64,000 nt of DNA from Alphaproteobacteria bacterium (GCA_038131655.1 JAYPPT010000002.1:52517-116516); one strand, 5' to 3'; shown: positions 1,680 to 56,932, counted from the first letter of the stretch. The notes: generated from the sequence alone by a model not told the origin. A program made the numbers and translations.

Positions 1680-1706
1680 GACCGGATGGTAGCACCGGGC
1701 GGGGGA

Positions 1707-6696: not shown

Positions 6697-6721
6697 TTAG
6701 CGGCGTCCCGGAGATTTGCCC

Positions 6722-7231: not shown

Positions 7232-7246
7232 CATTCTGAACGGGCC

Positions 7247-7702
7247 GTGCTGTCGGTCGTGTCAGGGATGGGGTCACTTAAAGGGAGCCCGTTCGCCGTG
7301 TCGCCGAGGTCATTGTCCACTGTCTTCCTGTGTTGCGCCCTGGTCCTGTCCGGGGGCGCCGCCGCTGCTGATCTTGAAGGCGGCGGGGCGCTCATGCAGG
7401 GACTGGACAAGGTGACGGCCCGCATATCGCCGATCCATGCCCCCGTGGGCCAGGTGGTGCGTTTCGGAACACTGGAGATCATGGTGCGGCGCTGCCTCAA
7501 GCGCCCGCCGGAAGAGCCGCCGGAAAGCGCGGCGCTGGTGGACATCCGCGAGGTTCGGCCGGGGGAAGCACCGGTTGTGCTGTTCCAGGGCTGGATGTTC
7601 GCGTCGTCACCGGCGCTCAACGCGCTGGAGCATCCGGTTTACGACGTTTGGATCAAGGATTGCCTGAACGTCAAATCGGCGGTGGACAGCGCCCCCCGGT
7701 AG
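7247..7702 (+). CDS. DUF2155 domain protein (secreted)
   Basis: Signal peptide plus a conserved domain that commonly accompanies NDUFA12/mlaD in alphaproteobacteria. The 3' end overlaps the convergent aat gene. Confidence 0.6.
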
Positions 7703-8307
7703 AAGGACGCCTTGATCTCGAGCGCCGCGGCGAGGCGGGCATGATAATCGTCGCGCGAAATTTCGATGGCGCCGAACTGCATCAGATGCTCGGTGATGAA
7801 CTGGGTATCGAGCAGCGTATAGCCGCCACGGCGCAGCCGGGCCACGAGATGGCACAGCGCCACCTTCGAAGCATCGCGCATGGTTGAGAACATGCTTTCG
7901 CCAAAGAACGCGCCGCCGAGGGAAACCCCGTAAAGCCCGCCGACCAGCTCGCCCCGGCACCGGCATTCGACCGAATGGGCGTGTCCCAATTGATGCAGCG
8001 CGCCGGCAAGACGTCGAATTTCATCGTTGATCCAGGTGCTTGGGCGAACGGTCCGCGCCGCTGCGCAGGCGCTGACGGTGGCGTTGAAGGCGGTATCACA
8101 GGTCACGTCGAAGCGGTCCTGGCGCAAGGTGCGCTGGAGGCGGCGTGAAACGTGGAAACCATCGAGCGGCAGGATGCCGCGCATTTCCGGGTCGAGCCAG
8201 AACAGGGTCGGGTCGTCGGCGGATTCCGCCATCGGAAAAATGCCCGCGGCATAGATACGCAGCAGCAGTTCCGGGGTCGGTGGGGACAGGGCGTTTCCGG
8301 TATTCAT
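7639..8307 (-). CDS. aat: Leucyl/phenylalanyl-tRNA--protein transferase
   Basis: 222 aa with motifs [14 protein letters not shown] and GESMFS. Confidence 0.85.
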
Positions 8308-41070: not shown

Positions 41071-42237
41071 ATGAGCGTCGTGCTGGACCAAGCCGATGTG
41101 CTGCCCGTTCTTGCTCCCCTGGTGGCGGGCAAGGCGCCTGCGGACACGCGTGTGGTCGTCGCTATGTCGGGCGGCGTCGATTCGTCGGCGACGGCGGCGT
41201 GGCTGCACGCGCTCGGCTACGATGTGATCGGCATCACGCTTCAGCTTTACGATCATGGTCAGGCGGTGGGGCGCAAGGGTGCTTGCTGCGCCGGGCAGGA
41301 TATCCACGATGCCCGTGACGTTGCCGCTGGGCTTGGTATTCCGCATTACGTGCTCGACTACGAAAGCCGTTTCCGCGATCAGGTGATGGACGATTTCGCT
41401 GATGCCTACCTGCGCGGGGAAACACCGATCCCCTGCGTGCGCTGTAACCAGACGGTGAAGTTCCGCGACCTGCTGGCGACGGCCCGCGAACTGGGCGCGG
41501 ATGTCTTGGCCACCGGCCATTATGCGCGCCGCGAGGAAGGTGCCGCCGGCCCCGAACTGCGCCGCGCCGCCGATGACGGGCGCGACCAGAGCTATTTCCT
41601 GTTCACCACCACCCGCGACCAGCTCGATCTGCTGCGCTTCCCCCTGGGCGGGCTGCCGGACAAGGCCGCGACCCGGGCGCTGGCCCAGCGCTTCGGCCTG
41701 CGCGTCGCCGACAAGCCCGACAGCCAGGACATCTGCTTCGTGCCCGATGGCGATTACGCGCGGGTGATCGAAAAGCTGCGCCCCGGCGCGGCGGAGCCGG
41801 GCGATATCGTGGATATGGAGGGCAATGTCCTGGGCCGCCACAAGGGCATCATTCATTACACCATCGGCCAGCGCCGGGGGCTCGGCATCGGCGGGCGCAC
41901 GGGCGGGGAGGACGATGCGCTTTATGTCATCCGCCTCGATGCCGATAGGCGCCGCGTCATCGTCGGCCCGCGTGCGGCGCTCGGCGTCGGCGCGATCACC
42001 CTGCGCGAGGTGAACTGGCTCGGCGATGCGCCCCTCGGCGCCCGGCCGGTGCCGGTCATGGTCAAGGTGCGCTCGACCCATCGCCCGGTGGCGGTGACCC
42101 TCGCGGCCACCGAAGATGGCGGCGCCCGGCTGGTGTTCGATCAGCCCGAGCCCGGCGTTTCGCCGGGCCAGGCGGCGGTTTTCTACGATGGTGACCGGGT
42201 ACTTGGCGGCGGCTGGATCGCGGCCACGGGCGGTTAA
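41071..42237 (+). CDS. mnmA: tRNA-specific 2-thiouridylase
   Basis: [13 protein letters not shown]-loop; C-terminus [13 protein letters not shown]. Confidence 0.9.
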
Positions 42238-42285
42238 CTTGACAGGGTGGGGCAGCCCGGCCTATACGCCTGTTTCCCGATTTAA

Positions 42286-42361
42286 GGCGGAGTAGCTCAG
42301 CTGGTTAGAGCAGTGGAATCATAATCCATGTGTCGGGGTTCAAATCCCTCCTCCGCTACCA
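42286..42361 (+). tRNA. tRNA-Met (anticodon CAT; elongator type, tRNA-Ile2 not excluded)
   Basis: 76-nt cloverleaf: acceptor GGCGGAG/CTCCGCT, D-arm GCTC..GAGC, anticodon stem GTGGA/TCCAT with loop ATCATAA, T-loop TTCAAAT, encoded CCA. Confidence 0.85.
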
Positions 42362-42368
42362 AATCAAG

Positions 42369-42397
42369 CCCCGCAGCCCCCGGTTGCGGGGCTTTAT
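42369..42397 (+). terminator. Rho-independent terminator after the tRNA
   Basis: gccccgca-N9-tgcggggc followed by tttat. Confidence 0.55.
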
Positions 42398-42587
42398 GGT
42401 CAGGGGACACGAAGCCCATTTTTTGAAAATTATTTTTAAAAATAAAGGGCTAATCTAATGAATAATAAATTCCGCTATTCGTCTAGAATCTATTAACTTT
42501 CGAGCTATCCTGCCATTTACAAGCAGGGAGAAAAGCAAGATTTCTATGTCTGGTGTTTCCCCTTGCATTCTGGCCTGATGTCAGGTG

Positions 42588-43010
42588 CTAGAGCGCGACC
42601 TGCTGCTGGCGGTCCTTCGTGAAGTAATCGCGATTATTCAATTGGCCCTTGCCGGCGATGACGATCTCGTCGCCCGGCTTCTTCACCTGGTAAAGCAGGG
42701 CGGGCGCTTCGCTTTCATTGTGCAGCTGATAATACTGCCCACCGGGAATCAGCACGCACATACCTTCTTCAAGGTGATGAACCTCCGGCTCCGCATCCTC
42801 GCTTTTCTTGGTTCGAACTGTCAGCTTACCTTTCAGGCATAAGAACGATTGTGACGTTCCCTTGTGGTAATGGAACTCGTTACGTCCGCCCGGTGAGTAA
42901 AGGTTAAGTGCGATCAGAAGATCCTCCTCCTTCGACAGCAGCTTGCGCTGGCGCGGGCGGTCTGGGTTCTGCATATCGATCGAATCGAAAATCCTGGTAA
43001 CCTGAGCCAT
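42588..43010 (-). CDS. Small cupin-domain protein
   Basis: Start MAQVTRIFDSIDM at 43010. Cupin motif ...NEFHYHKG...QSF. GC is lower than surrounding genes. Confidence 0.55.
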   Translation of the reverse strand: MAQVTRIFDSIDMQNPDRPRQRKLLSKEEDLLIALNLYSPGGRNEFHYHKGTSQSFLCLKGKLTVRTKKSEDAEPEVHHLEEGMCVLIPGGQYYQLHNESEAPALLYQVKKPGDEIVIAGKGQLNNRDYFTKDRQQQVAL

Positions 43011-43137
43011 GTCTGTTCCTCCATCGTTGGCGGCCTTTGCGGACTGTTGGTTGGAAGTGTAGCCGAATATACTCCCCTGAAAGGGCAAAAAGAAGGGGAG
43101 GGCTAGGCCCTCCCCATGATTGGTGCCATGGCTTGGG

Positions 43138-44391
43138 TTATTTGCAGTTGACTTCCTTTGCCTCGGCGCCGACGCGCAAGTAGACAAAAGTACAGGTCAT
43201 GCCTGGCTTGATATTCTTACGCTTGTTTTTTTTGCCGCCAATGGTGACCTTGGTGCGCGAACCGGAAACCTTGGCTGATACTTCCTTGCCCTCGTGCATC
43301 AGTGAGATCTTGCGACCACCTCTTTCGGTCTTGGTGACCTTGCCGGTGTGGTTGAGTATAGTGACTTTGGTCGTGACTTTGTTGGCATCGATGATCAGCT
43401 GCTTGACCTTAGGAGAAACATTCAGGGCCTCCTGGAATGCCTTGTCGACTTCCTCGCCGTAGCCCGCTTCGATGTCCCGGCCCTGGGCCTTGGCAGCCTT
43501 GCGTGCTTCCGGGTTTCCCAGTGCATACTTGTAGGCGGCACGGAGCGCCTCAAGACGGTCCGCCTTGATGCCCGGAGGTGCACCGGTCACCCGCCAGAAT
43601 TCACCGGCGAGGGTGGTCAGCTTGGCCAGTTGCAGGCCGTCTGGATCCTTTATCAGTTCATAGGCCGTGGGCACGTTCGGCAGGTCCGGATCCCGCTTGG
43701 TTGAATAGGTGGTGAGAATGCGGCCGCGGCCCTGCTTGTGGAAGTCGATATTGCTTTCGATCGACCCCATCATTACGTCGATTTCGCCGCGCATCATGGC
43801 AAGATGCGCGTCCGGTCCATCATAGCCCGGAATCATGCGGAACTTCAGGTTCATCGCGGCTTCCGACATCTTGGCGAAGACCCAGCGTCCCGAGCCCGGT
43901 CCACCGGTTGCCATTTTCAACGCCTTGCCCGCCGCGCGCATCTCGTCGATGCTTTTGTAAGGCAGCTTGCCGTTAACCATGATCAGCTGTGGCGAGCTCG
44001 AGGCCTTACCAAGGAAGTTCATTTTAGCGAGATCGTACTTGACGCCCTTCTTTTTCAGGATCTGGTTGAAGAACATCGCCGTGTTGAACGTGCCCATGGT
44101 TAGGCCGTCGGGCTTCGAATTGTAAATGAAGTTAGTGCCGATGATGTGGCCGGCGCCAGGCATATTGCGGACCACGAAGGTTGAGCCCTTCAGGTATTGG
44201 GACATGTACTTGGCAACCAGTCGGCCATAGAAGTCGAAACCGCCGCCGGCGCCGGTCGCGACGATATAGGTCGCGGTCTTTCCCTTGAAATAGGCGACGT
44301 CTTCCTTGGCTTTGGCGCTGTTCACTCCACCGAATCCGACCGCCGCGGCGAGTGTCACCGCGATGGCGATGGATGTCTTGCTGGGGTACAT
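43138..44391 (-). CDS. TctC/Bug-family periplasmic solute-binding protein with a conserved Cys-pair C-terminal extension (paralog A1)
   Basis: AGGAGG SD then MYPSKTSIAIAV signal peptide. Bug-type motifs ATGAGGGFDFYGR and FVVRNMPGAGHIIG. C-terminus ...SGSRTKVTIGGKKNKRKNIKPGMTCTFVYLRVGAEAKEVNCK. Confidence 0.7.
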   Translation of the reverse strand: MYPSKTSIAIAVTLAAAVGFGGVNSAKAKEDVAYFKGKTATYIVATGAGGGFDFYGRLVAKYMSQYLKGSTFVVRNMPGAGHIIGTNFIYNSKPDGLTMGTFNTAMFFNQILKKKGVKYDLAKMNFLGKASSSPQLIMVNGKLPYKSIDEMRAAGKALKMATGGPGSGRWVFAKMSEAAMNLKFRMIPGYDGPDAHLAMMRGEIDVMMGSIESNIDFHKQGRGRILTTYSTKRDPDLPNVPTAYELIKDPDGLQLAKLTTLAGEFWRVTGAPPGIKADRLEALRAAYKYALGNPEARKAAKAQGRDIEAGYGEEVDKAFQEALNVSPKVKQLIIDANKVTTKVTILNHTGKVTKTERGGRKISLMHEGKEVSAKVSGSRTKVTIGGKKNKRKNIKPGMTCTFVYLRVGAEAKEVNCK

Positions 44392-44588
44392 ACTGATGCC
44401 TCCTTTGACAGATGATTTGGGGATAGCGCCGGACCGGTCTTTGGACCGATTGTGGGCAGCAATTGACAGCCCGCGTCCTACTCGCCAAATTCTTTCGACG
44501 GTAACACGGGAGCAAACGGTGAGGCAAACCGTCCGTATCCCGCGGGAATTCTGTGAACAACCCGGCAAAAATAAAACAGGGGAAAAAA

Positions 44589-45830
44589 ATGAAAAAACGC
44601 CTTCAGGTAGAACGACGCACGCAGCGGTGGCAGGAACAGCGCTGGATTCTCGATGCGGTGATCGCCACCGTAGGTCCCGAATGGGACCAGGGCCGCATGT
44701 CCAAGGGCGCGCGAGCCGGATCAGAAGGTGCGGCGGCTTTCCGCACTGCATCATCGCGGATGAAGAGATTCAACGATATCGGTCCCGAATTTACCCGTCA
44801 GGGCCGGAAGGCGGAAGCTCGCGCAAAACAGTACGAGAAAGAAAAGCGCATGGTATCAGCGCGCGAGCAATATTTTATCGCCTCGCTTCTTTATGCATCG
44901 GCCCAGTGGCCTTATTTCGATTTCGACGACACCGTGGCAGAACTGGAAGAACGGATGAATGCGACGTTCGCCAAGTACTGTAAATACGCACCGCAGCCGA
45001 CACGCCGCGTCGAGATACCATTTGGTAAGGGCAAGACCCTTCCTGCGTATCTGCATTTGCCACGCAAGCCGGTAAGGGGTGAGCGCTTTCCGGTGACCCT
45101 GGTGACCGGCGGCATGGACGGCTCCAAGGAAAGCATGGTGTCAATGTACGGCGATCCGGCGTTGCAGCGCGGCTTCGCGGTATTGGCGCTGGACGGGCCG
45201 GGGCAGGGCGAATGCCCTGGCCGGGGTATCTACCTGACCCCGACCAACTTCGGCGATGCTGGTGCAGCTTGTGTTGATTGGCTGTGCGACCAGCCGGAGA
45301 TAGATCCGGACGGCGTCGTTATCCGCGGCTCCTCCTTCGGCACCTACTTCGGGACCCAGGCTGCAGCGGGGCTCGGCAACCGTATCAAGGGTGTCTGTGC
45401 CACTGGCATTTGCCAGGAACCGGGTGCGCATACCATCTTCAACATGGCGTCGCCCACCTTCAAGGTGCGCTTCATGTTCATGTGCGGCTTCGAGGACGAA
45501 GCCAAGTTCGACAAGTTCGTCCAAGGCTTCGACCTACGCAAGGTCGCAGCCAAGGTCAAATGTCCGTACATGATCGTGGCCGGTGAGGACGATCAGCTTT
45601 CCCCGGTGGAGCACACCTACAAGCTATTCGAGAAGATCAAGGCGCCGCGTCGCCTGGTGGTTTACGAAAGTGCGAACCATTCAATCAAGGGGGGACCAGC
45701 GGCTGCCAATGGCGAGAACCGGGAAACCATGATGATGGATTGGATGCTCGACCGGGTGACGGGCAAATCGATGAAATCCGAGCTCTGGTATATCGATTCT
45801 GCCGGGAAGGCCAACATTACCAGGTATTAG
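44589..45830 (+). CDS. Alpha/beta-hydrolase (DHPON-hydrolase/FrsA-like family)
   Basis: ~414 aa with the GSSFGTY nucleophile elbow. Family members include C-C bond hydrolases. Confidence 0.65.
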   Translation: MKKRLQVERRTQRWQEQRWILDAVIATVGPEWDQGRMSKGARAGSEGAAAFRTASSRMKRFNDIGPEFTRQGRKAEARAKQYEKEKRMVSAREQYFIASLLYASAQWPYFDFDDTVAELEERMNATFAKYCKYAPQPTRRVEIPFGKGKTLPAYLHLPRKPVRGERFPVTLVTGGMDGSKESMVSMYGDPALQRGFAVLALDGPGQGECPGRGIYLTPTNFGDAGAACVDWLCDQPEIDPDGVVIRGSSFGTYFGTQAAAGLGNRIKGVCATGICQEPGAHTIFNMASPTFKVRFMFMCGFEDEAKFDKFVQGFDLRKVAAKVKCPYMIVAGEDDQLSPVEHTYKLFEKIKAPRRLVVYESANHSIKGGPAAANGENRETMMMDWMLDRVTGKSMKSELWYIDSAGKANITRY

Positions 45831-45871
45831 GTAGTTGAAACCGGGGGCGAGCCTCCTGTTGGCGAAGCCGA

Positions 45872-46063
45872 TTGCAGAGGTGGGGCCGGGTGATCGTGAT
45901 CAGCAATGCAGGACGGGCGGTTTCGGCCAATGCCTTTGAGCCGCGCACCAAGGTTACCGTCGGCGGCAAACCGGCTAAGCGTTCGGCCCTCAAGCAGGGC
46001 GTGACCTGTACTTTCCACTATCCGAGCCCCGGCGCTGAGGCTGAGCAGATCATTTCCAAATAG
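45872..46063 (+). pseudogene. Stand-alone degenerate copy of the TctC-paralog C-terminal extension
   Basis: Encodes ...EPRTKVTVGGKPAKRSALKQGVTCTFHYPSPGAEAEQIISK. Nucleotide-level similarity to the 3' ends of the A-type paralogs; no upstream TctC domain; second Cys lost. Confidence 0.5.
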
Positions 46064-46092
46064 CCCGGTATCTATTAATTTTAGCGACTTAG

Positions 46093-46120
46093 GCGGGCCC
46101 GAAAGGCCCGCCCATCTTTC
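46093..46120 (+). terminator. Candidate terminator hairpin
   Basis: ggcgggcc-cgaaa-ggcccgcc followed by catctttc. Confidence 0.35.
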
Positions 46121-46257
46121 TGTCGGTCTCTGTCGCCTTGCGGCAGGAAGAGCTAGCGGTTAGTTTTTTGCCTTAGCCAGGGGTCCTAGCGCGCGAGATC
46201 AAGCAATAAAATGCGCGCAGTTGACGGGCGCTTGCCTCGATAAACAGGGAGCCAAGC

Positions 46258-47496
46258 ATGCACAGCATAAACACCAAGAGAATAGTATTGGGCCTCGCGG
46301 CCGGCATGGCCATGTCGTTGGCGGGGACCGCGGGGGCCACCGACAAAGGCAAGGCCTATTTCAACGGCAAGACGGTGGAATGGATCGTCGCCACGGCGCC
46401 CGGCGGCGGCCACGATTTCTGGGGGCGGCTGGTGGCGGGCTCGATGCAGAAGCATCTTCCCGGCTCGACCTTCGTGGTAAAGAACCGGCCCGGTGCCGGC
46501 CATGTTATCGGCGCCAACCTGATCTACAACGCCAAGCCCAACGGGCTGACCCTGGGCAATTTCACCACGGGATTGCTCTATTCGTCGCTGCTCAAGACCA
46601 AGGGTATCCGCTTCGACTTGGCCAAGATGTCGTGGCTCGGCAAGGTAACGTCCGAACGCCGCGTCCTGTCCGTGGGACAGAAATCCGAATTCAAGTCCTT
46701 TCAGGACATGATCGATTCCAAGCGGATCATTAAGTTCTCGGCCACCGGGGTGGGCTCCAACACCCATACGGAAGCCTTCCTGCTGGGCACGGCCTTCAAG
46801 ATCCCGTTCAGGATCATCACCGGCTACACCAGTTCTTCGGCGGCGCTGGCCATCCTGCGGGGTGAGATAGACGCCATGACCGGGGGCGAGGATTCGGCCG
46901 CGTCCTATGAGAAGGCCGGGCATATCCGCAACGTCATGATGATCGGCGCGGGCAAGCCCGGCGTTGTCGATGCCGCCGATTACGCCAAGACGCCGCTGGC
47001 CAAGTCCGTGGTCAGGCTGATGGGGGCCATGGGCACGTTGTCGCGCATCATGGCCGGCCCCCCGGCCATCCCGGCGGACCGCCTGGCGGCGCTGCGCACG
47101 GCGTTCCGCGAATCGCTCGAAAGCCCGTCGCTGCAGGCGGCGGCAAAAAAGGCGGGCCGCGGGATCGAGCCGGCCTATGGCGATGATGTCGGCCGCCTTG
47201 TCGCGGAACTGATGGACCAGCCGCCGGAGGTGGTGGCGATGCTCAATGAGCTGTCCAAGGTCCGGGTTGCAATGGTCAAGCACGAGGGCAAGGTCACCCA
47301 GACCAAGCGGGGCGGGAGGCAGGTATTCATCAGCCACAAGGGCAAGGAGGTCTGGGCCAAGATCTCCGGTTCGCGCACCAAGGTGACGGTCAATGGCAAG
47401 CCCGCCAAGCGCAAGGCGATCAAGGTGGGCATGACCTGCGCGTTTTCCTACCCGCGCGCCAATGCCGAGGCCAAGAAGGTTGACTGTAGAAAATAA
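46258..47496 (+). CDS. TctC/Bug-family binding protein with Cys-pair C-terminal extension (paralog A2)
   Basis: Signal peptide. Motifs ATAPGGGHDFWGR and FVVKNRPGAGHVIG. C-terminus ...SGSRTKVTVNGKPAKRKAIKVGMTCAFSYPRANAEAKKVDCRK. Confidence 0.75.
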   Translation: MHSINTKRIVLGLAAGMAMSLAGTAGATDKGKAYFNGKTVEWIVATAPGGGHDFWGRLVAGSMQKHLPGSTFVVKNRPGAGHVIGANLIYNAKPNGLTLGNFTTGLLYSSLLKTKGIRFDLAKMSWLGKVTSERRVLSVGQKSEFKSFQDMIDSKRIIKFSATGVGSNTHTEAFLLGTAFKIPFRIITGYTSSSAALAILRGEIDAMTGGEDSAASYEKAGHIRNVMMIGAGKPGVVDAADYAKTPLAKSVVRLMGAMGTLSRIMAGPPAIPADRLAALRTAFRESLESPSLQAAAKKAGRGIEPAYGDDVGRLVAELMDQPPEVVAMLNELSKVRVAMVKHEGKVTQTKRGGRQVFISHKGKEVWAKISGSRTKVTVNGKPAKRKAIKVGMTCAFSYPRANAEAKKVDCRK

Positions 47497-47699
47497 AATA
47501 AAATCATAACAGTTGGTTACATTCAACTTCTAAAGTTAATTCTTTGGATGAGCCGGGCCGGGTTTCCGGGGTTGAACCGACCCGGCCCAGCGGCTAGCCT
47601 TGGGCTCAATACAGGGAAAGACCTCGAATAATATAATATGCAACTGCGGTTTAAACGCATGTGTCAGGGGTCTTTCGGCACAAGAACTGGGAGACGAAA

Positions 47700-48938
47700 A
47701 TGAAACATCCTTCACAGAACTGGGCCGGCTACGCGATCGCGGCGGCGGCAGGACTGGCGCTTGCCGCGCCGGCGGTGGCGGCCGAAAAGGGCGCGGCTTA
47801 TTTCAAGGGCAAGACGGTCGAATGGATCGTTACCACGGCGCCGGGCGGTGGCCACGATTTCTGGGGCCGGTTGCTGTCCAACACCATGGAAAAGAAGCTG
47901 CCGGGCTCGACCTTCGTGGTCAAGAACCGGCCGGGTGCCGGGCATATCATCGGCGTCAACCTGATCTACAGTTCCACCCCCAACGGGCTGACGATGGGTA
48001 ATTTCACCACCGGTCTGGCCTATTCCCAGGTGTTGAAGAAGAAGGGCATCCGCTTCGATCTGGCCAAGATGTCGTGGCTCGGCAAGCTGGCGTCGGAGCC
48101 GCGCACCATGTCGGTGGCGAAGAATTCGCCCTTCAAGAATTTCGAAGACATTCTCAAGTCCAAGCGGGTGCTGAAGTTCTCGGCTTCCGGCGTGGGGTCC
48201 GGCTCCTATACGGACAGTTTCATGGTCGGCCAGGCTTTCGGCCTGCCGTACCGGATCATTACCGGCTATTCCGGCTCCCAGTCGGCGCTGGCGATGCTGC
48301 GCGGCGAAGTGGACATTCTCATGGGTAGCGAGGATTCGGCGCTGGCCTACCAGCGTGCCGGTCAGCTGCGCATCGTCATGCAGGTCGGTGGCGGCGTGAA
48401 AGGCGTGCAGGACGGCCGGGATTACGCCAACAACCCGCAGGCCAAGGCGGTGATGCGGCTGCTGTCGCAGATGGGGGCGCTGTCGCGCATTGCCGCCGGT
48501 CCGCCGAATATCCCCGCTGATCGCCTTGCGGCGCTGCGGGCCGCGTTCAAGGCTTCGACCGAGGATGCGGAATTCCGCGCCGCGGCCAAGCGCGCGGGGC
48601 GTTCGATCGAGCCCGCCTTCGGCGAGGACGTTCAGAAAATGATCGTCGCACTGATGGATCAGCCGCCGGAAATCGTGGACCTGCTCAAGAAGCTGTCCAC
48701 GGTCAAGGTGGACATGATCCAGCACGTCGGTCCGGTGACCCAGATCAAGCGGGGTGGGCGCCAGGTGTACATCTCCAACAAGGGCAAAGAGGTGTTCGCC
48801 AAGATTTCCGGTTCGCGCACCCGAGTGACCGTTGACAACAAGAAGGCCAAGAGAAAGGCCATCAAAAAAGGGATGACCTGCACCTTCACCTATCCTCGGG
48901 CGAATGCCGAGGCGAAGAAGGTGGATTGCAAGAGCTAG
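47700..48938 (+). CDS. TctC/Bug-family binding protein with Cys-pair C-terminal extension (paralog A3)
   Basis: ~75% identical to A2. C-terminus ...SGSRTRVTVDNKKAKRKAIKKGMTCTFTYPRANAEAKKVDCKS. Confidence 0.75.
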   Translation: MKHPSQNWAGYAIAAAAGLALAAPAVAAEKGAAYFKGKTVEWIVTTAPGGGHDFWGRLLSNTMEKKLPGSTFVVKNRPGAGHIIGVNLIYSSTPNGLTMGNFTTGLAYSQVLKKKGIRFDLAKMSWLGKLASEPRTMSVAKNSPFKNFEDILKSKRVLKFSASGVGSGSYTDSFMVGQAFGLPYRIITGYSGSQSALAMLRGEVDILMGSEDSALAYQRAGQLRIVMQVGGGVKGVQDGRDYANNPQAKAVMRLLSQMGALSRIAAGPPNIPADRLAALRAAFKASTEDAEFRAAAKRAGRSIEPAFGEDVQKMIVALMDQPPEIVDLLKKLSTVKVDMIQHVGPVTQIKRGGRQVYISNKGKEVFAKISGSRTRVTVDNKKAKRKAIKKGMTCTFTYPRANAEAKKVDCKS

Positions 48939-48974
48939 GTAGCTTGCGCGCTACCGCTTGGCGGGTTCCGCTTC

Positions 48975-48993
48975 GGCGGGCCCGCCTTTTTCT
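48975..48993 (+). terminator. Rho-independent terminator
   Basis: ggcggg/cccgcc followed by ttttt. Confidence 0.55.
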
Positions 48994-49125
48994 TTGCCAG
49001 GAGCCCGGAATCCGCCGGGCGGCGGGATCGCGGTTGATCGGGCACGGGGGCTCGGCTAGCATCCGGAGGCTAACTCGCGCCCTCGCAACCAAAAAAAACA
49101 AGCGCGGAAACTATGGGGAGATTTC

Positions 49126-49524
49126 ATGGCCAAGATTCGCCATTTTGCTATCGTTTCCACGGACCCGGGCAAGCTCGCGGATTTTTACGAGCGGGTCTTC
49201 GAGATGGAGGTCCTGCACCGCGCCGATAACGGCAGCGTGTTCATGACCGACGGTTATCTCAACCTCGCCATCTTGCTCAACAAGGCCGAGGGCAAGCCCA
49301 GTGGCCTGAATCATTTCGGCTTTCATGTCGAGGATTCGGCGGAAATCGCGCGCCGGCTTGAAAGCGAAGGCCTGCCGGGACCGGCGAAGCGCCCCGCCGA
49401 TCGCCATTACGCGCAGTTCCGGGCCTTTGACCCGGACGGCAACAATTTCGATCTTTCAGAAAACGGGTACGAAACCGTACGGCCCGATCGCATGTCGTCG
49501 GTCAAGGCAAAAACGCCGGCCTGA
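49126..49524 (+). CDS. VOC/glyoxalase-family protein
   Basis: 132 aa: MAKIRHFAIVSTDPGKLADFYERVFEM...LNHFGFHVED. Confidence 0.75.
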   Translation: MAKIRHFAIVSTDPGKLADFYERVFEMEVLHRADNGSVFMTDGYLNLAILLNKAEGKPSGLNHFGFHVEDSAEIARRLESEGLPGPAKRPADRHYAQFRAFDPDGNNFDLSENGYETVRPDRMSSVKAKTPA

Positions 49525-49559
49525 CGCATCCCACTTATTCCACGAACAGGGAGAGAGAT

Positions 49560-50855
49560 ATGAGCATCATTCAAAAACTGGCTTTCGCTGGTGTCGCGGC
49601 AGGAGCGTTCGCTATTGCCGCGCAGGCACCGGTGCAGGCTGCGGATTTTTATAAGGGCAAGACCATCAAGGTTGTCATCGGCTATAGCGCTGGCGGTGGT
49701 TACGATATCTACGCCCGCGCCGTTGCGCGTTATCTCGGTCGCTATGTGCCGGGCAATCCAAACGTCATTTCCCAGAATATGACCGGCGCGGGCAGTGTGC
49801 GCGCCGCCAATTATCTTTACGTTCAGGCGCCGAAGGACGGCACCCAGTTCGGTACGTTCTCTCGCGGGTTGCCCCTCCTGGCACTGACCGGTGCGGACAA
49901 GAACGTGCGTTTCGATCCGACCAAGTTCAAATGGATTGGCAGTACGTCGAGCTATGCCGATGACGCCTATGTGTTTACCGTGCGGCGCGACAAGGGCATC
50001 ACGTCGGTGCGTGAGTTGATGGGCAAGAATGCCAAGCTGGTTACCTTCGGTTCGACCAACTACGGTTCCACCGGGTTCGATGTTCCGCTGGTGCTGAAGG
50101 ATACGTTGGGCCTCAACATCAAGCTGGTTCATGGTTATCCCGGCGGTAGTGCCATCAACCTGGCGATCGAGCGCAAGGAAATGGATGGCCGTACCCAGGG
50201 CCTGTCGTCACTGAGTTCAATGGGCGGCGACTGGAAAAAGGACCGTATTGGGCTGGTGCAGTTCGCCCGCGGAAATGTCCGTCACCCGGACCTGGCTGAC
50301 GTGCCAACGGCGCGTGAACTTGCGACCCGCGAAGACGACCGCAGGCTGATCGACATGCTGGAAACGGCGTTCTTCATGGCGCGTCCGTTTGCCGCCCCTC
50401 CGGGGGTTCCCGTGGACCGCATCAAGGTCCTGCGTACCGCTTTCATGGCGGCCCAGAAAGATCCGAAGTACGTCAAGGACATGGGTAAGCTGGGCATGGA
50501 CATAAGCCCTAAAAGCGGCGAAGAGGTTGAACAGATCGTCGCCCGAATTATGAGCACGCCCAAGCCCTTGCTCGCGCGCTACAAGTCGATCATTGAAAAT
50601 CCTAAGGCGGAGCCACGCAAGGTCAACTGGATCCTGTCCGAAGGCACGATCAGCAAGGTCGGCAAGAAGGGCCGCATCCAGATCAAGGTCGCGGGCAAGT
50701 CCAAGGCCTTCAAGACCCGGATGCGCAAGGGCTATACCAAGATCACGGTCAACGGCAAGAAGGCCAAGATCAAGTCGGTCAAGGAAGGTATGACCTGTAA
50801 GATCTGGCACGAAGGGCCTAAGTCCACTGCCGGCAAGGCTGAATGCACCAAATAG
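49560..50855 (+). CDS. TctC/Bug-family binding protein with Cys-pair C-terminal extension (paralog B1)
   Basis: Signal peptide. Motifs GYSAGGGYDIYAR and NMTGAGSVRAANY. C-terminus ...KITVNGKKAKIKSVKEGMTCKIWHEGPKSTAGKAECTK. Confidence 0.75.
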   Translation: MSIIQKLAFAGVAAGAFAIAAQAPVQAADFYKGKTIKVVIGYSAGGGYDIYARAVARYLGRYVPGNPNVISQNMTGAGSVRAANYLYVQAPKDGTQFGTFSRGLPLLALTGADKNVRFDPTKFKWIGSTSSYADDAYVFTVRRDKGITSVRELMGKNAKLVTFGSTNYGSTGFDVPLVLKDTLGLNIKLVHGYPGGSAINLAIERKEMDGRTQGLSSLSSMGGDWKKDRIGLVQFARGNVRHPDLADVPTARELATREDDRRLIDMLETAFFMARPFAAPPGVPVDRIKVLRTAFMAAQKDPKYVKDMGKLGMDISPKSGEEVEQIVARIMSTPKPLLARYKSIIENPKAEPRKVNWILSEGTISKVGKKGRIQIKVAGKSKAFKTRMRKGYTKITVNGKKAKIKSVKEGMTCKIWHEGPKSTAGKAECTK

Positions 50856-50874
50856 ATTCGGTTCAGGGGCGAAG

Positions 50875-50899
50875 AGGCGGGACCGTGTTCCCGCCTTTT
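50875..50899 (+). terminator. Rho-independent terminator
   Basis: ggcggg-N8-cccgcc followed by ttttt. Confidence 0.55.
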
Positions 50900-51041
50900 T
50901 GTGCCCAAGGTGCGGTAAATATGCAACATTTTGTTGTATTGATCCCACATCCACAAGTCGTTAGCATCCGCCCAAGAAATCAAGAAAGGCCGCTGAACCT
51001 CACCCAAGAGGGCGGCGTTGATATTTGAAAGGCAGGGAAAT

Positions 51042-52340
51042 ATGTCAACCCATCTCCATTTGGGGCGAGTTTCGCTCGCCCTCGTGTTCGGGCTCGGGGT
51101 TGCCGCTCATGGCGCGGCGCAGGTCGGGGCCGCTGAATTGTACGAAGGCAAGACCGTCAAGGTGATGATCGGTTACGGGGCCGGCGGCGGCTACGATACT
51201 TATGGTCGCTTCGTCGCACGCAATATCGGCAGGCATTTGCCGGGCAAGCCCAGCACCATCACCCAGAACATGCCCGGCGCCGGTTCGATCGCCGTGGTCA
51301 ACTATATCTACAAGCAGGGTGCCAAGAATGGCACCGAGTTCGCCATTTTCGCCCGCTCCGCGCCGATTCTCGCGCTGGCCGGAAAAAGCAAGCAGGCCCG
51401 GTTCGATCCGCTGAAGCTCACCTGGGTCGGCAGCTCGTCGAGCTACAAGGGCGAGGCCTACATGATGATGGTGCGCAAGGACACGGGCATCACTTCCATC
51501 AACGACTTGCGCAAGGCCAAGAAGGAGCTTCGTTTCGCCGCAACCTCGTTTGGCTCCGACGGCACCGACGTGCCGATCGTGCTGCGCGAAGTCCTTGGCC
51601 TCAACATCGTGCCGCTGCGCGGTTATCCGGGCGGCAATTCGCTTTATCTCGCGGTCGAGCGCGGTGAAGCGCAGGGCCGCATGACGGGCTTTGCCTCAAT
51701 GAAGACGGCGCAGCCGGGATGGCTCAAGCCGGACGCCCCGGTGCGGCCGATCCTTCAGTTCGCCACCCAGACCCGCCTGCCGGAATTTCCCGACGTGCCG
51801 ACCGCACGCGAGATTGCGACCAAGGCGGATGACCTGGCCCTGATCGAGATGCTGGAAGCGCCGTTCTACATGGCCCGGCCTTTTGCCGCGCCGCCGGACC
51901 TGCCCGCGGAGATCACCAAGGCCCTGCGTACGGGCTTCATGAAGGCGCACCAGGATCCGGTCGCATTGAAGGAAGCGAAGAAGCTGCGTCTCGACCTGTC
52001 CCCCGCTGACGGTGCCGAAGTGCATAAGGTCATCGAGCGCCTGGCGGCGATGCCGAAGTCGCTTTACGACCGCTATAACGACATCCTGAAGGACCCGAAG
52101 TCGCCGATCCGCCAGGTCAAGTGGCAGATCGTGGAGGGTGAGCTTTCCAAGATTGCGAAGAAGGGCCGGGTCGAACTGGTCTCCGGCGGCAAGACCCACA
52201 AGGTCCGGGTCACCGGCGGCTACACCGAGCTTACGATCAAGGGCAAGGCCGCGAAGGACAAGGCCCTGAAGACCGGCATGACCTGCAAGGTCTGGTACGA
52301 AGGCAACGGCTCCGCCGCCGGCAAGATGGAATGCAAATAA
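51042..52340 (+). CDS. TctC/Bug-family binding protein with Cys-pair C-terminal extension (paralog B2)
   Basis: MSTHLHLGRVSLALVFG... Motifs GYGAGGGYDTYGR and NMPGAGSIAVVNY. C-terminus ...LTIKGKAAKDKALKTGMTCKVWYEGNGSAAGKMECK. Confidence 0.75.
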   Translation: MSTHLHLGRVSLALVFGLGVAAHGAAQVGAAELYEGKTVKVMIGYGAGGGYDTYGRFVARNIGRHLPGKPSTITQNMPGAGSIAVVNYIYKQGAKNGTEFAIFARSAPILALAGKSKQARFDPLKLTWVGSSSSYKGEAYMMMVRKDTGITSINDLRKAKKELRFAATSFGSDGTDVPIVLREVLGLNIVPLRGYPGGNSLYLAVERGEAQGRMTGFASMKTAQPGWLKPDAPVRPILQFATQTRLPEFPDVPTAREIATKADDLALIEMLEAPFYMARPFAAPPDLPAEITKALRTGFMKAHQDPVALKEAKKLRLDLSPADGAEVHKVIERLAAMPKSLYDRYNDILKDPKSPIRQVKWQIVEGELSKIAKKGRVELVSGGKTHKVRVTGGYTELTIKGKAAKDKALKTGMTCKVWYEGNGSAAGKMECK

Positions 52341-52373
52341 CCTTCTGATCGGCGATCGCCGAAACGACTGCTG

Positions 52374-52405
52374 GGGCGCGAATCTTCGGATTCGCGCTCT
52401 TTTTT
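52374..52405 (+). terminator. Rho-independent terminator
   Basis: gcgcgaatc-ttcg-gattcgcgc followed by tctttttt. Confidence 0.6.
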
Positions 52406-52594
52406 GGCCGAAAAGCCACTTTATAAAATATATGTTTTTGATAACCCATTGAAATTAAATAATCTTAAGTTCTTAAGACGCTCCATGCGTTGCCCCGGCC
52501 CAAGAAAGCTTGTTAGCATCTTCTTATTCATGGCGGAGGCGACAAGGCGCTGAAGAAACCCGGCCCCGCCGCACAGAAGAACTGGGAGACTGAA

Positions 52595-53908
52595 ATGAGT
52601 AAATTCCATCATCTGGCCCGCATTCCTGCCTTTGCGGGTGTCGCGGCCCTTGTCGGGGCTGCTGCCCTGGCGCTTCCCTCAAATCCGGCATCGGCGGAAA
52701 TGTTTTCCGGCAAGACCGTTCGCGTGCTTATCGGCTACGCCGCCGGTGGCGGCTACGACCGTTACGGTCGCCAGGTCGCGCGCCATATCGGCAAGTACCT
52801 GCCGGGCAAGCCCAATGTCGTCGCCGTGAATATGCCGGGCGCGGGCAGTTACAAGGTGGTCAACTACATCTACAACACTGCGCCGAAGGACGGCACGGAG
52901 TTCGCGATTTTTGCCCGCTCCGTGCCCATTCTTGCGTTTTCGGGCAAGTTCGACAAAACCCGCTTTGATCCGCTGAAGCTGACCTGGATCGGCACGTCGT
53001 CCAGCTACAAGGGCGAAGCCTATCTTGTGGTGGTGCGCAAGGACACCGGCGTGAAAAATATCGAGGATCTTCGCAAGATCAAGAAGACGGTAATGTTCTC
53101 GGCCACGGCTTTCGGTTCCGACGGTACCGACGTGCCGATCGTGCTGCGTGAAGTGCTTGGCCTCAATGTTCAGGCGTTGCGCGGTTACCCTGGCGGCAAC
53201 TCGCTTTACCTTGCGGTGGACCGTGGCGAGACCCAGGGACGCATGGTCGGCTACGCCTCGGTCAAGACGGCGCATCCCGAATGGCTGAAGCCGGACAGCC
53301 CGATCAATGTCGTGCTGCAATTCGCCACGCGCGAGCGTCTGCCCGCCTTCCCCAATGCGCCGACGGCTTACGAGCTTGCCCGCAACGACGCGGACCGTGC
53401 GTTGATCGACATGCTGGAAGCGCCGTTCTACATGGCGCGCCCGTTCGCGGGCCCGCCTGGCATGCCGGCGGCGAATACCTCGGCGGTGCGCGCGGCCTTC
53501 ATGGCGGCGCATGAGGACCCGGTGTACAAGAAGGAAGCGAAGAAGTTGCGCTTGCTCACCAGTCCCCAGGACGGTGCCACCGTGCAGAACCTGGTGGCCA
53601 AGCTCGGCAAGATGTCGCCGGACCTTTATGCGCGTTACACGCGAATCCTGAAGAACCCGGATTCCCCGGTCCGCGTCATCAAGTGGGTCAAGTTTTCCGG
53701 CAAGATCTCGAAAACCGGCAAGAAGGGCCGCTTCGTGGTCAAGACCGCCGAGGGCAAGAGCCACAAGCTGCGTGCCCGCGGCAGCTACACCAAGATCAAG
53801 ATCAACGGCAAGAAAGCCAAGTCAAAGGCGCTCAAGAAGGGCATGGAGTGCAATGTCTGGTGGGAAGGTCCGAAGACCACGCCCGGCCGGGTAGAGTGCA
53901 CGAAGTAA
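52595..53908 (+). CDS. TctC/Bug-family binding protein with Cys-pair C-terminal extension (paralog B3)
   Basis: Motifs GYAAGGGYDRYGR and NMPGAGSYKVVNY. C-terminus ...KIKINGKKAKSKALKKGMECNVWWEGPKTTPGRVECTK. Confidence 0.75.
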   Translation: MSKFHHLARIPAFAGVAALVGAAALALPSNPASAEMFSGKTVRVLIGYAAGGGYDRYGRQVARHIGKYLPGKPNVVAVNMPGAGSYKVVNYIYNTAPKDGTEFAIFARSVPILAFSGKFDKTRFDPLKLTWIGTSSSYKGEAYLVVVRKDTGVKNIEDLRKIKKTVMFSATAFGSDGTDVPIVLREVLGLNVQALRGYPGGNSLYLAVDRGETQGRMVGYASVKTAHPEWLKPDSPINVVLQFATRERLPAFPNAPTAYELARNDADRALIDMLEAPFYMARPFAGPPGMPAANTSAVRAAFMAAHEDPVYKKEAKKLRLLTSPQDGATVQNLVAKLGKMSPDLYARYTRILKNPDSPVRVIKWVKFSGKISKTGKKGRFVVKTAEGKSHKLRARGSYTKIKINGKKAKSKALKKGMECNVWWEGPKTTPGRVECTK

Positions 53909-53931
53909 CGTTCTGCGCTTGAAGTCATTGA

Positions 53932-53962
53932 GGGCGCGGGTTTTGGCCCGCGCCCTTTTTTT
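53932..53962. terminator. Bidirectional Rho-independent terminator between paralog B3 and the convergent UbiD-family gene
   Basis: gggcgcggg-ttttgg-cccgcgccc followed by ttttttt. Confidence 0.6.
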
Positions 53963-53964
53963 GC

Positions 53965-55416
53965 CTAGAGCCCGAACTTGTCGCGCACCTTGGCGCGCAT
54001 GTCGTCGGAGAACACGTTGACGGCCGGGAATTCGTCGCGCCAGCGGTAGGGGCGGCAGGCATCGATCAGGACCCGGTCCATGGTGTAGCCGTGGGGCGAG
54101 CGGTCATCGGGGGCGATGGCCGGATCGGCGGGCGATGTCCAGACGCTCTTGACGATATCCACGCCTTCACGCGGATTGCAGCGGGTGGCGACGGCCCAGA
54201 TGACATCGTTGATGTTCGACGCCTCGACATCGTCGTCGACGACGATGACGAACTTGCCGCCGTAGGCCCCGGCGCGGGCCGAAGTCGCGGCCAGCGCGGT
54301 CTGCTTGGCGTGCCCGGCATAGGACTGGCGGATGGAGACCACGGTGAAGGGACCGGATTGCCCGCCGTAGATATGACCCCAGACGCCGGTGATGCCGGGA
54401 ATGCCGGCGGCCTCAAGCTGGTCCCACAGTTGCGCCGCGCCCAGCGGCACGGAAATGTAATTGTTGGGCGGCTTCAGCGGCGGCACGCCGAGGATGATCG
54501 GCTCATCCCGCCAATAGGCCGCCTTGACGTGCATCAGCGGCACTTCGCCGGTGGTGGTGTCGGCGAAATAGCCGGGCCATTCGCCGAAGGGGCCTTCCTT
54601 GGGCAGCACCTCGTCGCTCGGCGGCGGCACCTCGCCCTCGATCACGATCTCGGCGCTGGCGGGAATAGGCAGGCCATAAAGCGGGCTGGCGACGGTTTCC
54701 ACCGGCGCGCCCTGCAGCCAGCCGGCGATTTCATATTCCTTCTCGCCGGGCGCGACGGGCAGTTGCGCGGCCAGGAAGATCGAGGTCGCGTGGCCGAAGC
54801 TGATGGCCACGGGGCAGGCTTCGCCCCGCGCGTGGTAGGCGTCCATCGCCAGGCGCCCGTGCTTGCCCTTGTTCATCTTGACGCTGATGCGGTCCTTGCC
54901 CTGCACCATGCAGCGGTAGGTGCCGATATTGACCTGGCCGCTGTCGGGGTCGCGGGTGATGACCGCCGATCCGGTGCCGAGATAGCGTCCGCCGTCGTGT
55001 TCGTGCCAGATGGGGGCGGGAAAGATGCCGAGATCAAGCGCCGCACCCTCGGCGCGGTTCTCGAACACCGGGCCGTCCTTGACCATCACCGGGGCGATGG
55101 GTTTCTTCTCGCGGATACGCTGGCGCCAGGCGTTGAGCAGGCCAACCCCGGAAAGCGTGTCCGGCAGTCCCAGGCTGGCGGCGGCGCGGGCGTGGGTGCG
55201 AAAGACGTTGGAAAAGACCCGGAAGCCCTTGGGGTAATCCTTGATCTCGTCGAACAGGAGGGCAGGGCCTTCTTCCTCGCCCAGGATTTCGGTCACGGCG
55301 CCGATTTCAAGTTTCCAGTCGGCGCCCTTGATTTCCCGCAGGTCGCCGCTCTCGCGCAGTTCCGCGATAAAGGCGCGCAGGTCGCTTTGCCGGTTGCTTC
55401 GGTTGTTCGCGCTCAT
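53965..55416 (-). CDS. UbiD-family (prFMN-dependent) decarboxylase
   Basis: Start at MSANNRS. ~483 aa. UbiD-type body (…PGYFADTTTGEVPLMHV…, …FVIVVDDDVE…). Confidence 0.8.
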   Translation of the reverse strand: MSANNRSNRQSDLRAFIAELRESGDLREIKGADWKLEIGAVTEILGEEEGPALLFDEIKDYPKGFRVFSNVFRTHARAAASLGLPDTLSGVGLLNAWRQRIREKKPIAPVMVKDGPVFENRAEGAALDLGIFPAPIWHEHDGGRYLGTGSAVITRDPDSGQVNIGTYRCMVQGKDRISVKMNKGKHGRLAMDAYHARGEACPVAISFGHATSIFLAAQLPVAPGEKEYEIAGWLQGAPVETVASPLYGLPIPASAEIVIEGEVPPPSDEVLPKEGPFGEWPGYFADTTTGEVPLMHVKAAYWRDEPIILGVPPLKPPNNYISVPLGAAQLWDQLEAAGIPGITGVWGHIYGGQSGPFTVVSIRQSYAGHAKQTALAATSARAGAYGGKFVIVVDDDVEASNINDVIWAVATRCNPREGVDIVKSVWTSPADPAIAPDDRSPHGYTMDRVLIDACRPYRWRDEFPAVNVFSDDMRAKVRDKFGL

Positions 55417-55447
55417 TGCATCCCCCCTGCACCGGCGCGTTCCCGCC

Positions 55448-56929: not shown

Positions 56930-56932
56930 ACG

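Follow-up and report, generated by a model that had tools for sequence, protein, structure and literature searches.

Six genes of the analysed window, a 64,000-nt stretch of DNA from an Alphaproteobacteria bacterium (GCA_038131655.1), encode secreted binding proteins of the TTT (TctC/Bug) type, each extended by a C-terminal tail (Table 1). The gathering threshold of the Pfam family PF03401 (27 bits) is passed by paralogs 1 to 4, while paralogs 5 and 6 fall below it; the latter two align over their full length with paralog 4, with core identities of 48–67%. In a Foldseek search, the AlphaFold2 model of paralog 2 matched the solved structures of TBP, TphC, Bug27, BugD, BugE, MatC, AdpC and the Polaromonas TctC (E 1e-16 to 8e-19; TM normalised to the target 0.69–0.84), i.e., the cores share with the TTT binding proteins the two-lobe type II periplasmic binding fold. 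The disulfide found in lobe 2 of some Bug proteins is absent from the window proteins. A size of 29–33 kDa is conserved among TTT binding proteins (PMC5812351). After removal of a signal peptide of about 28 residues, the mature window proteins have about 41–45 kDa and thus lie outside this range, owing to the additional tail domain. No tctA or tctB gene was found beside any of the six genes, all of which are orphans, and their clustering resembles the orphan-rich paralog clusters known from the Bug and Rhodoplanes expansions (PMC5994714).

Table 1. TctC-like genes and tail copies, with positions counted from the first letter of the window
Feature	Position	Strand	Details
Paralog 1, TctC-like binding protein with tail	43138..44391	-	417 aa, start MYPSK; Cys400, Cys416; Pfam TctC 77.2 bits, residues 57-326; alignment A1
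Tail domain, paralog 1	43141..43374	-	Cys codons 43192-43194, 43144-43146; tail HMM E 2e-34, profile positions 3-80; translation checked
Relic of a seventh tail, truncated and decayed	45872..46063	+	63-aa ORF; SGSRT changed to NAFEPRT; last Cys lost (QIISK)
Paralog 2, TctC-like binding protein with tail	46258..47496	+	412 aa; Cys394, Cys410; Pfam TctC 54.3 bits
Tail domain, paralog 2	47251..47493	+	Cys codons 47437-47439, 47485-47487
Paralog 3, TctC-like binding protein with tail	47700..48938	+	412 aa; Cys394, Cys410; Pfam TctC 67.1 bits; alignment A1
Tail domain, paralog 3	48693..48935	+	tail HMM E 5.5e-41; translation checked
Paralog 4, divergent TctC-like protein with tail	49560..50855	+	431 aa; Cys413, Cys429; Pfam TctC 27.6 bits, barely over the cut-off of 27; alignment A1
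Tail domain, paralog 4	50613..50852	+	tail HMM E 1.8e-26
Paralog 5, divergent TctC-like protein with tail	51042..52340	+	432 aa; Cys415, Cys431; Pfam TctC 20.3 bits, under the cut-off; full-length alignment with other paralogs
Tail domain, paralog 5	52110..52337	+	tail HMM E 1.8e-26
Paralog 6, divergent TctC-like protein with tail	52595..53908	+	437 aa; Cys419, Cys435; no Pfam TctC match; weak TAXI (TIGR02122, E 1.9e-7) and weak Phosphonate-bd matches; core 67% identical to paralog 5
Tail domain, paralog 6	53672..53905	+	tail HMM E 1.2e-28

The tail is a Lys/Arg-rich module of about 75–80 aa at the C terminus of all six paralogs. Among the window ORFs of at least 80 aa, the tail HMM matched these six (E 1e-26 to 1e-41) and no other, and a TctC without a tail does not occur in the window. 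A search with the pattern G[MLIV]xC...C-stop likewise recovered the six genes; its only other match is an out-of-frame string that overlaps the last of them. The alignment and the tail HMM (6/6 ORFs) thereby bear out the preliminary description, which had proposed an extra C-terminal module with two cysteines on every paralog. These are not only the sole cysteines of the tail region, as had been stated, but also the sole ones of each whole protein. Their spacing, previously given as variable, is i to i+16 (15 residues between them) in all six, and the proposed ending C-x-K is not universal, with CRK in paralog 2, CK in paralogs 1 and 5 and CKS in paralog 3. Similarly, the preceding SGSRTKVT-like segment is present in paralogs 1 to 3, whereas paralogs 4 to 6 have K/G/S-G-Y-T-K/E instead. 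The relic upstream of paralog 2 matched the tail profile A4 in hhalign with a probability of 99.5% (E 3.4e-22, 58 columns). At its place, two syntenic loci, L081 and L083, have an intact TctC of 402–405 aa; the relic ORF was also called in L078–L080, there as a 57-aa ORF.

According to the structure predictions, the tail is a domain separate from the TctC lobe rather than its end. The full-length AlphaFold2 model of paralog 2 (pLDDT 88.9) has an all-beta tail at residues 340–412 (pLDDT >90), and the tail predicted alone was all-beta as well (pLDDT 92.8, pTM 0.79). In these models the folded domain comprises about 75 aa plus a short linker, somewhat less than the 80–90 aa estimated before. The Pfam TctC match stops at residue ~313–340, and all solved TTT binding proteins (288–302 aa) cover the core only, about 310 columns in the Foldseek comparison with the paralog 2 model. 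The earlier placement of the module beyond the canonical TctC fold therefore holds. By structure comparison, the modelled tail is a small closed beta-barrel that matches known OB domains, the best small-domain match being CusF (TM 0.60–0.67); it thus belongs to the OB topology class and is not novel in its fold.

At the sequence level, the six tails alone gave no credible match in Pfam, NCBIfam or PDB, and the Pfam models DUF5666 (PF18914) and CusF_Ec did not score for any of them, even at E values up to 10. The view that the tail is not a described domain is therefore correct as far as family entries are concerned; its fold, however, is known, and it appears to have distant kin among DUF5666-type domains, which are themselves uncharacterised. 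This kinship is indirect. The tail profile A4 aligned with a set of DUF5666-type repeats (A6) over 69 columns with a probability of 97.2% and E ~3e-11 (3.2e-11) in hhalign, a comparison that is partly circular, because the A6 repeats had been selected with the tail HMM. Of the 18 repeats in A6, seven matched Pfam DUF5666 and three CusF_Ec. Furthermore, in a search of 5.8 billion sequences, the tail profile matched stand-alone relatives of 93 aa that lack the cysteines (E ~1e-6), and their best Pfam matches, both sub-threshold, were again DUF5666 and CusF_Ec. These profile comparisons suggest that the tail is a distant relative of the DUF5666-type repeats and of periplasmic DUF5666/CusF-like OB domains. 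With DUF5666, a beta-barrel repeat of the periplasm or the cell exterior that is itself uncharacterised, it has in common the motif x-R/T-T-x-[IV]-T-[LV]-N-G-x-x-A-x-[RL]-x-x-[LI]-x-x-G-M, an OB-like beta topology, secreted contexts and an occurrence in single or tandem copies. It differs by its own signature (GGR, SGSRT and GMxC...C-terminus), by another arrangement of the cysteines and by its fusion to binding proteins, whereas DUF5666 forms long tandem arrays.

Several domains with a known function were considered as well. CusF (PF11604), which in E. coli serves as a periplasmic metallochaperone for Cu(I)/Ag(I), is a small OB barrel of the size of the tail, but is free-standing, has no disulfide and is part of an efflux system. 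A direct hhalign comparison of the tail with the CusF sequence was insignificant (probability 0.7%). A CusF-type metal site was rejected, as His36, Met47, Met49 and Trp44 are lacking and the W44-M47-M49 segment falls into a gap of this alignment. The HMA domain (GMxCxxC, beta-alpha-beta-beta-alpha-beta) was rejected too, in agreement with the preliminary description: the cysteines are 16 positions apart, the tail is all-beta and Pfam HMA gave no match. TOBE (transport-associated OB, PF03459/PF08402), an OB module on the C terminus of ABC-transporter ATPases, offers an analogy only. Like HMA and CusF_Ec, the Pfam TOBE models were not matched by any of the six tails. Profile search and structure prediction together thus yielded neither a known family nor the normal end of a TctC lobe, as had been anticipated.

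Conservation was assessed over 123 divergent tail sequences, non-redundant at 70%. Both cysteines, C63 and C79, are conserved to 99%, followed by G49 (0.99), T43 (0.98), G22 (0.94), R54 (0.91), S39 (0.89), K58, M61 and A74 (0.88 each) and R23 (0.84). Exactly two cysteines are present in 236 of the 239 full-length tail domains. In the model of the tail alone they lie on the last two strands (62–67 and 76–80), which are neighbours. In the periplasm, cysteine pairs on adjacent strands are expected to be oxidised by the Dsb system. Given this position and the oxidising compartment, the two cysteines are most likely joined in a structural disulfide, which would be buried and would brace the barrel. 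Their conservation, their place on adjacent strands and the Val found in Cys-less relatives (see below) agree with such a bond, if only indirectly.

An alternative is that the tail holds a second small-ligand site, for an anion (carboxylate, phosphate or sulfate) or for a metal bound via Met-x-Cys...Cys, and acts as a sensor or as an antenna for substrate capture, like CusF or TOBE. CusF as the nearest small solved domain, the weak matches of the DUF5666-type repeats to CusF_Ec and SilF, the highly conserved SGSRT and GGR segments as plausible anion-binding loops and the conservation of M61 and both cysteines would fit such a site. Yet the His/Met/Met/Trp site of CusF has no equivalent in the tail, the 123 sequences contain no conserved His, no conserved Met beyond M61 and no Met-x-Met, and some members have Leu, Val or Gln in place of M61, as befits a core position. 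In the Cys-less relatives, Val occupies the first Cys position and, in an alignment made by hand with the EAK motif as anchor, the second one too, which points to packing rather than ligation. Together with the expected oxidation of the Cys pair and the lack of Pfam TOBE, HMA and CusF_Ec matches, this leads us to regard a small-ligand site as quite improbable.

The window tails contain 16–23 Lys and Arg per ~75 aa and have a net charge of +9 to +19. Over all full-length tail domains, the median net charge is +14, with a 10th percentile of +4 and a minimum of -6; acidic variants such as P0139, P0143 and P0179 exist, and the basic charge is therefore not universal. As the cores of the window proteins are basic, too (pI 9.6–10), the charge may partly reflect the periplasmic proteome of the organism.

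An exhaustive profile search identified 491 protein clusters with the tail (counted by representatives), nearly all of them from uncultured Alphaproteobacteria. Besides TctC with one tail, we found TctC with two tails (P0128, P0130 and P0179), ABC-type binding proteins (SBP_bac_1/6/8) with a tail (P0200, P0213, P0241 and P0244; P0213 is present on six contigs) and a signal peptide followed by the tail alone (P0165 and P0323). The tail is thus portable, moving between host proteins. Between paralogs, the identities of the tail (28–76%) and of the core (25–67%) track each other, which indicates that the fusion predates the divergence of the paralogs and has been passed on with them. The neighbourhoods of the stand-alone tail genes gave no clue to function.

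These architectures bear on what the tail might bind. It could be a docking adaptor for one specific protein partner that many orphan binding proteins have in common. Candidates are the TctA/TctB translocators, of which the genome has few, a sensor kinase or a chemoreceptor; dozens of paralogs would thereby gain affinity for a single receptor. Most tail-bearing genes are indeed orphans among catabolic enzymes without a membrane component nearby (the window, L081–L084 and L090), the GGR, SGSRT and AEA loops could make up one interface, and the tail is conserved at least as well as the core, or slightly better, across paralogs that presumably differ in ligand. In addition, some tail-bearing genes lie within tctC-tctA-tctB operons. 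In L060, tctA and tctB come immediately after a tctC with a tail; in L037, L056 and L059, tctA does so, and in L061 and L076 this place is taken by an unassigned membrane ORF of ~500 aa. This linkage also speaks for genuine TTT proteins among the tail-bearing homologues. However, the ABC-type fusions use another translocator, which makes an interface specific for TctA/TctB unlikely, tandem tails are easier to reconcile with avid binding to a surface or polymer than with one docking site, and no co-occurring candidate gene for a partner was found in the window-syntenic, stand-alone and ABC-fusion neighbourhoods. We thus consider a docking adaptor unlikely, although less so than a small-ligand site.

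Least probable to us is that the tail binds nothing of its own and serves as a stabilising or self-association module for oligomerisation, solubility or protease resistance. The long tandem arrays of DUF5666-type domains are compatible with it, as is the dimerisation of some TRAP binding proteins via C-terminal elements (PMC5812351). But secreted stand-alone tails would have nothing to stabilise, and the polar, surface-type residues R23, S39, R54 and K58 are conserved to 0.84–0.91 over the 123 divergent sequences, arguing for a specific interaction.

In the reading that we favour, with a modest degree of confidence, the tail is a portable OB domain, braced by a disulfide, through which soluble binding proteins have a binding activity in common. 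This activity would probably be attachment to the cell envelope and not the binding of substrate or metal. The C terminus of the binding protein would lead via the short linker into the ~75-residue barrel, which was probably fused before the paralogs diverged, duplicated in tandem, and used also on ABC-type binding proteins and alone as a small secreted protein. It would thereby serve binding proteins with different ligands and two unrelated kinds of translocator, and because its hosts differ in both respects, we infer that it neither binds the transported substrate nor docks specifically on TctA/TctB. Probably it binds something common to all hosts. Our preferred candidate is an anionic surface of the envelope, i.e., lipid head groups of the inner membrane or the cell wall, and the binding face may be formed by the conserved GGR, SGSRT and AEA loops and the strongly basic surface. 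Such binding would keep otherwise soluble binding proteins near the membrane. A more far-reaching version, which we put forward tentatively and hold to be possible but doubtful, is a dedicated tether for binding proteins: a disulfide-locked OB domain, recruited independently by TTT- and ABC-type proteins and also occurring free, that keeps soluble periplasmic receptors in place, either at one envelope site or on one receptor common to all.

TTT binding proteins have been described as uniform in size and architecture; here, a clade of hundreds of clusters carries an extra conserved domain. This, and the capture of the domain by ABC-type binding proteins, points to a property that soluble binding proteins of these organisms have in common beyond the binding of ligands; localisation, assembly or the use of one receptor would be examples. 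No family entry is devoted to the tail, no current family model captures it, and since Pfam and NCBIfam miss it at present, defining the domain would improve annotation. It would also provide a testable handle on the periplasmic organisation of orphan binding proteins. If the more far-reaching version is true, the tether would be a Gram-negative counterpart of the lipid-anchored binding proteins in Gram-positives and Archaea and could explain how large sets of orphans stay functional in these uncultured Alphaproteobacteria.

All six TctC-like binding-protein paralogs of the window (p1-p6) carry an extra C-terminal module of ~75 residues, rich in Lys and Arg. This feature of the preliminary description was confirmed by a full-length alignment and by a profile HMM of the tail, which matched exactly p1-p6 among the window ORFs of at least 80 aa (E 1e-26 to 1e-41). 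A scan of the window ORFs found no tail-less TctC. The Pfam model for TctC (PF03401) matched p1-p4 above threshold, p5 below threshold and p6 not at all; where there is a match, it stops at about residue 313-340, and ~80 more residues follow in all six. Without signal peptide, p1-p6 have a size of ~41-45 kDa; for TctC homologues a conserved size of 29-33 kDa is given in a review of the tripartite tricarboxylate transporters, TTT (PMC5812351).

Common to p1-p6 is the ending G-M-[TE]-C-x15-C, followed by one or two residues. Of the motif as first described, the GM[TE]C...C ending held in all six, and the variable distance of 13-16 residues to the second Cys gave way to a constant spacing of 16 positions. 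The two cysteines, described as the only ones of that region, turned out to be the sole ones of the entire protein (6/6). The paralogs form two groups, p1-p3 and p4-p6, with 41-67% identity inside a group and 25-32% across groups; tail and core identities rise and fall together, which indicates that the fusion is older than the divergence of the window paralogs. An artefact of gene fusion or frameshift was ruled out: clusters with this architecture number in the hundreds, and syntenic loci of independent assemblies show it as well.

Coordinates of the tail-bearing paralogs and associated features in the window and in gene loci (L) of other assemblies
Feature	Sequence	Position	Strand	Evidence
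p1, TctC-like + tail	window	43138-44391	-	mutual full-length alignment of six ORFs
p2, TctC-like + tail	window	46258-47496	+	mutual full-length alignment of six ORFs
p3, TctC-like + tail	window	47700-48938	+	mutual full-length alignment of six ORFs
p4, TctC-like + tail	window	49560-50855	+	mutual full-length alignment of six ORFs
p5, TctC-like + tail	window	51042-52340	+	mutual full-length alignment of six ORFs
p6, TctC-like + tail	window	52595-53908	+	mutual full-length alignment of six ORFs
Relic of seventh tail-bearing TctC, 63-aa ORF	window	45872-46063	+	hhalign 99.5% to tail profile
GC-rich hairpin	window	46093-46113		
Binding-protein cluster with GC dip	window	42000-54000		
UbiD/EutA-like/cupin trio	window	53968-58162	-	
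Stand-alone tail, P0323 family	L085	7581-7844		
Cys-less relative, P0335	L087	8001-8282		
ABC-type binding protein + tail, P0213	L090 (55.6-kb contig)	1467-2852		
TTT operon	L060 (MAG chromosome OX638326.1)	4963-8270		
Long TctA homologue	L007	2481-4601	-	
Long TctA homologue	L041	2488-4611	-	
Long TctA homologue	L065	2611-4743	-	

AlphaFold2 modeling of the full paralog p2 (60-sequence alignment, pLDDT 88.9) folded residues 340-412 as an all-beta unit of their own (pLDDT >90), and a model of the tail alone (34 sequences) reached a pLDDT of 92.8 and a pTM of 0.79, with strands at 9-19, 24-29, 32-37, 44-47, 62-67 and 76-80. Foldseek comparison of the full p2 model with the PDB matched every solved TTT binding protein (TBP, TphC, Polaromonas TctC, Bug27, BugE, BugD, MatC and AdpC, all of 288-302 residues) over ~305-315 columns, with TM scores of 0.69-0.84 when normalised to the target and 0.52-0.61 when normalised to the query. 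The separate beta unit and these short alignments ruled out that the tail is simply the normal end of the TctC lobe and bear out the earlier proposal of a domain beyond the canonical fold. Judging from the models, the tail is very probably an extra, independently folding OB barrel.

The tail also stands outside the described families, as had been supposed: Pfam (newest models 2025) held no credible match at E up to 10, NCBIfam release 20.0 no match, and the PDB sequences no significant match to the tail profile; a model for it is missing from both family databases. Among small domains, Foldseek ranked CusF, a periplasmic Cu(I)/Ag(I) chaperone, best (TM 0.60-0.67 in both normalisations, E ~1e-3). 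Searched exhaustively by HMMER, 1.84 billion representative proteins yielded 491 clusters that match the tail profile at E <=1e-3. These include long secreted proteins with 5-8 weak tail-like repeats, each scoring 10-24 bits in register along the entire profile and called DUF5666 (PF18914) and CusF_Ec (PF11604) by Pfam. By hhalign, tail and DUF5666-type repeats aligned over 69 columns with 97.2% probability and E 3e-11, values that are partly circular because the repeats were chosen with the tail HMM; they have the motif RT-x-[IV]-T-[LV]-NG-x-x-A-x-x-x-x-L-x-x-GM in common. By its sequence, a Cys-less secreted family of 93 aa is an independent bridge from the tail to DUF5666/CusF_Ec: it matches the tail profile at E ~1e-6 (5.8 billion sequences), retains SGSRT, and has DUF5666 and CusF_Ec as its best Pfam matches, both below threshold. 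We assign the tail to the DUF5666/CusF-like periplasmic OB domains, among which it forms a divergent branch without a family entry.

Direct hhalign of the tail against CusF was insignificant, and in that alignment the ligand-bearing segment of CusF has no counterpart in the tail. No conserved His or Met-x-Met occurs in 123 tail sequences non-redundant at 70%. With the CusF ligands absent, a CusF-like metal chaperone was ruled out; an HMA site, which the preliminary description had already rejected, fits neither the spacing of the cysteines nor the fold. A rival to the role considered below is a small-ligand or metal site of some kind in the tail.

Exactly two Cys are present in 236 of 239 full-length tail domains, and in the non-redundant set C63 and C79 (tail numbering) are 99% conserved each. 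Both lie on the last two barrel strands of the AlphaFold2 tail model, which form a hairpin; the tail-bearing proteins carry signal peptides and reside in the periplasm. The Cys-less 93-aa relatives have Val at the first Cys position (GQNV aligned to GMTC) and, in a manual alignment anchored on EAK (EAKTIKV vs EAKKVDC), also at the second. A hydrophobic pair in place of the Cys pair, on neighbouring strands, is the pattern that a buried structural disulfide would leave, and we infer that Cys63-Cys79 would be such a bond. A purely stabilising or oligomerising module is another candidate role for the tail. Its strongly conserved loop residues are G22-R23, S39-G-S-R-T43, G49, R54, K58 and A74, and its composition is very basic in most members (median net charge +14).

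More than 1500 full-length homologues of p2 exist; each of the best 120 is 373-456 aa long and matches PF03401 only, and most of these belong to uncultured Alphaproteobacteria. With every species represented by a single genome, a scan with tails of the p1-p3 group only detected 146 tail-encoding stretches. The retained loci all came from MAGs (77/77), labeled Alphaproteobacteria, Rhodospirillales, Rhodospirillaceae, Hyphomicrobiaceae or unclassified Proteobacteria, and several MAGs held at least 10 tail copies.

Six architectures were seen. TctC with one tail is the majority form, and some clusters have two tandem tails (P0128, P0130, P0179). The search for other hosts found ABC-type binding proteins unrelated to TctC (Pfam SBP_bac_1/6/8) that carry a tail with both Cys (P0200, P0213, P0241, P0244), and secreted forms consisting of a signal peptide and the tail alone, again with both Cys (P0165, 98 aa; P0323 family, 87 aa). 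The Cys-less stand-alone relatives (93-aa family, P0335) and, most distant, the DUF5666-type arrays complete the list. P0213, found on six contigs, is an orphan among catabolic genes, its neighbours in L090 encoding a LysR regulator, enoyl-CoA hydratase, CoA ligase, racemase and MR/MLE; the gene neighbourhoods of the stand-alone forms gave no functional clue. The tail is a portable module. P0123 (114 aa) passes straight from a TctC-like signal peptide and first FYKNKRV motif into a complete tail; it is either a natural deletion derivative that has lost all of the binding core or a product of misassembly.

In the window, p1-p6 are orphans. In other genomes a tail-bearing tctC stands immediately upstream of tctA, with tctB next in line in L060, so these homologues are genuine TTT receptors. 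The complete L060 operon has the order tctC-tctA-tctB, the classical order being tctC-tctB-tctA, and is flanked by arylmalonate-decarboxylase-like, amidohydrolase and FAD-oxidoreductase genes. The TctA homologues encoded at three loci are ~706-710 aa long (usual length ~500 aa), have 14-16 predicted membrane helices and may be TctA-TctB fusions; in the one scanned, from L007, the Pfam TctA match covers residues 21-441 only.

Between the FrsA-like hydrolase gene and p2 lies a 63-aa ORF, the degenerate 3' end left from a seventh copy, in which SGSRT has become NAFEPRT and the final Cys is gone; a GC-rich hairpin follows downstream. In the syntenic MAG loci L081 and L083 an intact TctC of 402-405 aa occupies its position. 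Other assemblies share the cluster in synteny, at 63-69% identity and with the common order cupin, tail-bearing TctCs, FrsA-like hydrolase, more tail-bearing TctCs, VOC, UbiD, EutA-like and cupin. The trio made up of a UbiD-family decarboxylase, an EutA-like ATPase (PF06277, E 1e-122) and a ~405-409 aa cupin-containing protein also adjoins the binding-protein cluster in L081, L083 and L084; it is unusual for an EutA-type reactivase to accompany UbiD where ethanolamine lyase genes are missing. GC content is 0.57-0.61 over the cluster vs 0.62-0.68 in the flanks, which may reflect Lys-rich coding (AAG/AAA) or a separate island origin.

The hosts of the tail serve two unrelated translocator types, TTT and ABC. 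Since the receptors that have the module in common differ in ligand and in translocator, it is unlikely to bind substrate or to dock specifically on TctA/TctB; the latter idea, down-weighted here, would suit the operons with tctA and tctB, but the ABC-type fusions count against it. The tail might instead bind a shared protein receptor. Tentatively, and with somewhat less than even confidence, we favour a disulfide-braced module that would tether or localise receptors of differing ligands and translocators at the envelope. A basic OB barrel in the periplasm would fit binding of anionic envelope components, and tandem tails suggest avidity for a surface or polymer; weaknesses of the tethering reading are that acidic tail variants exist and that the core of the window proteins is basic, too. 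In the searchable literature we found no description of a TctC that ends in an OB or DUF5666-like domain. The OB fold and the TctC host family are known; new are the architecture and the portability of the tail across binding-protein families.
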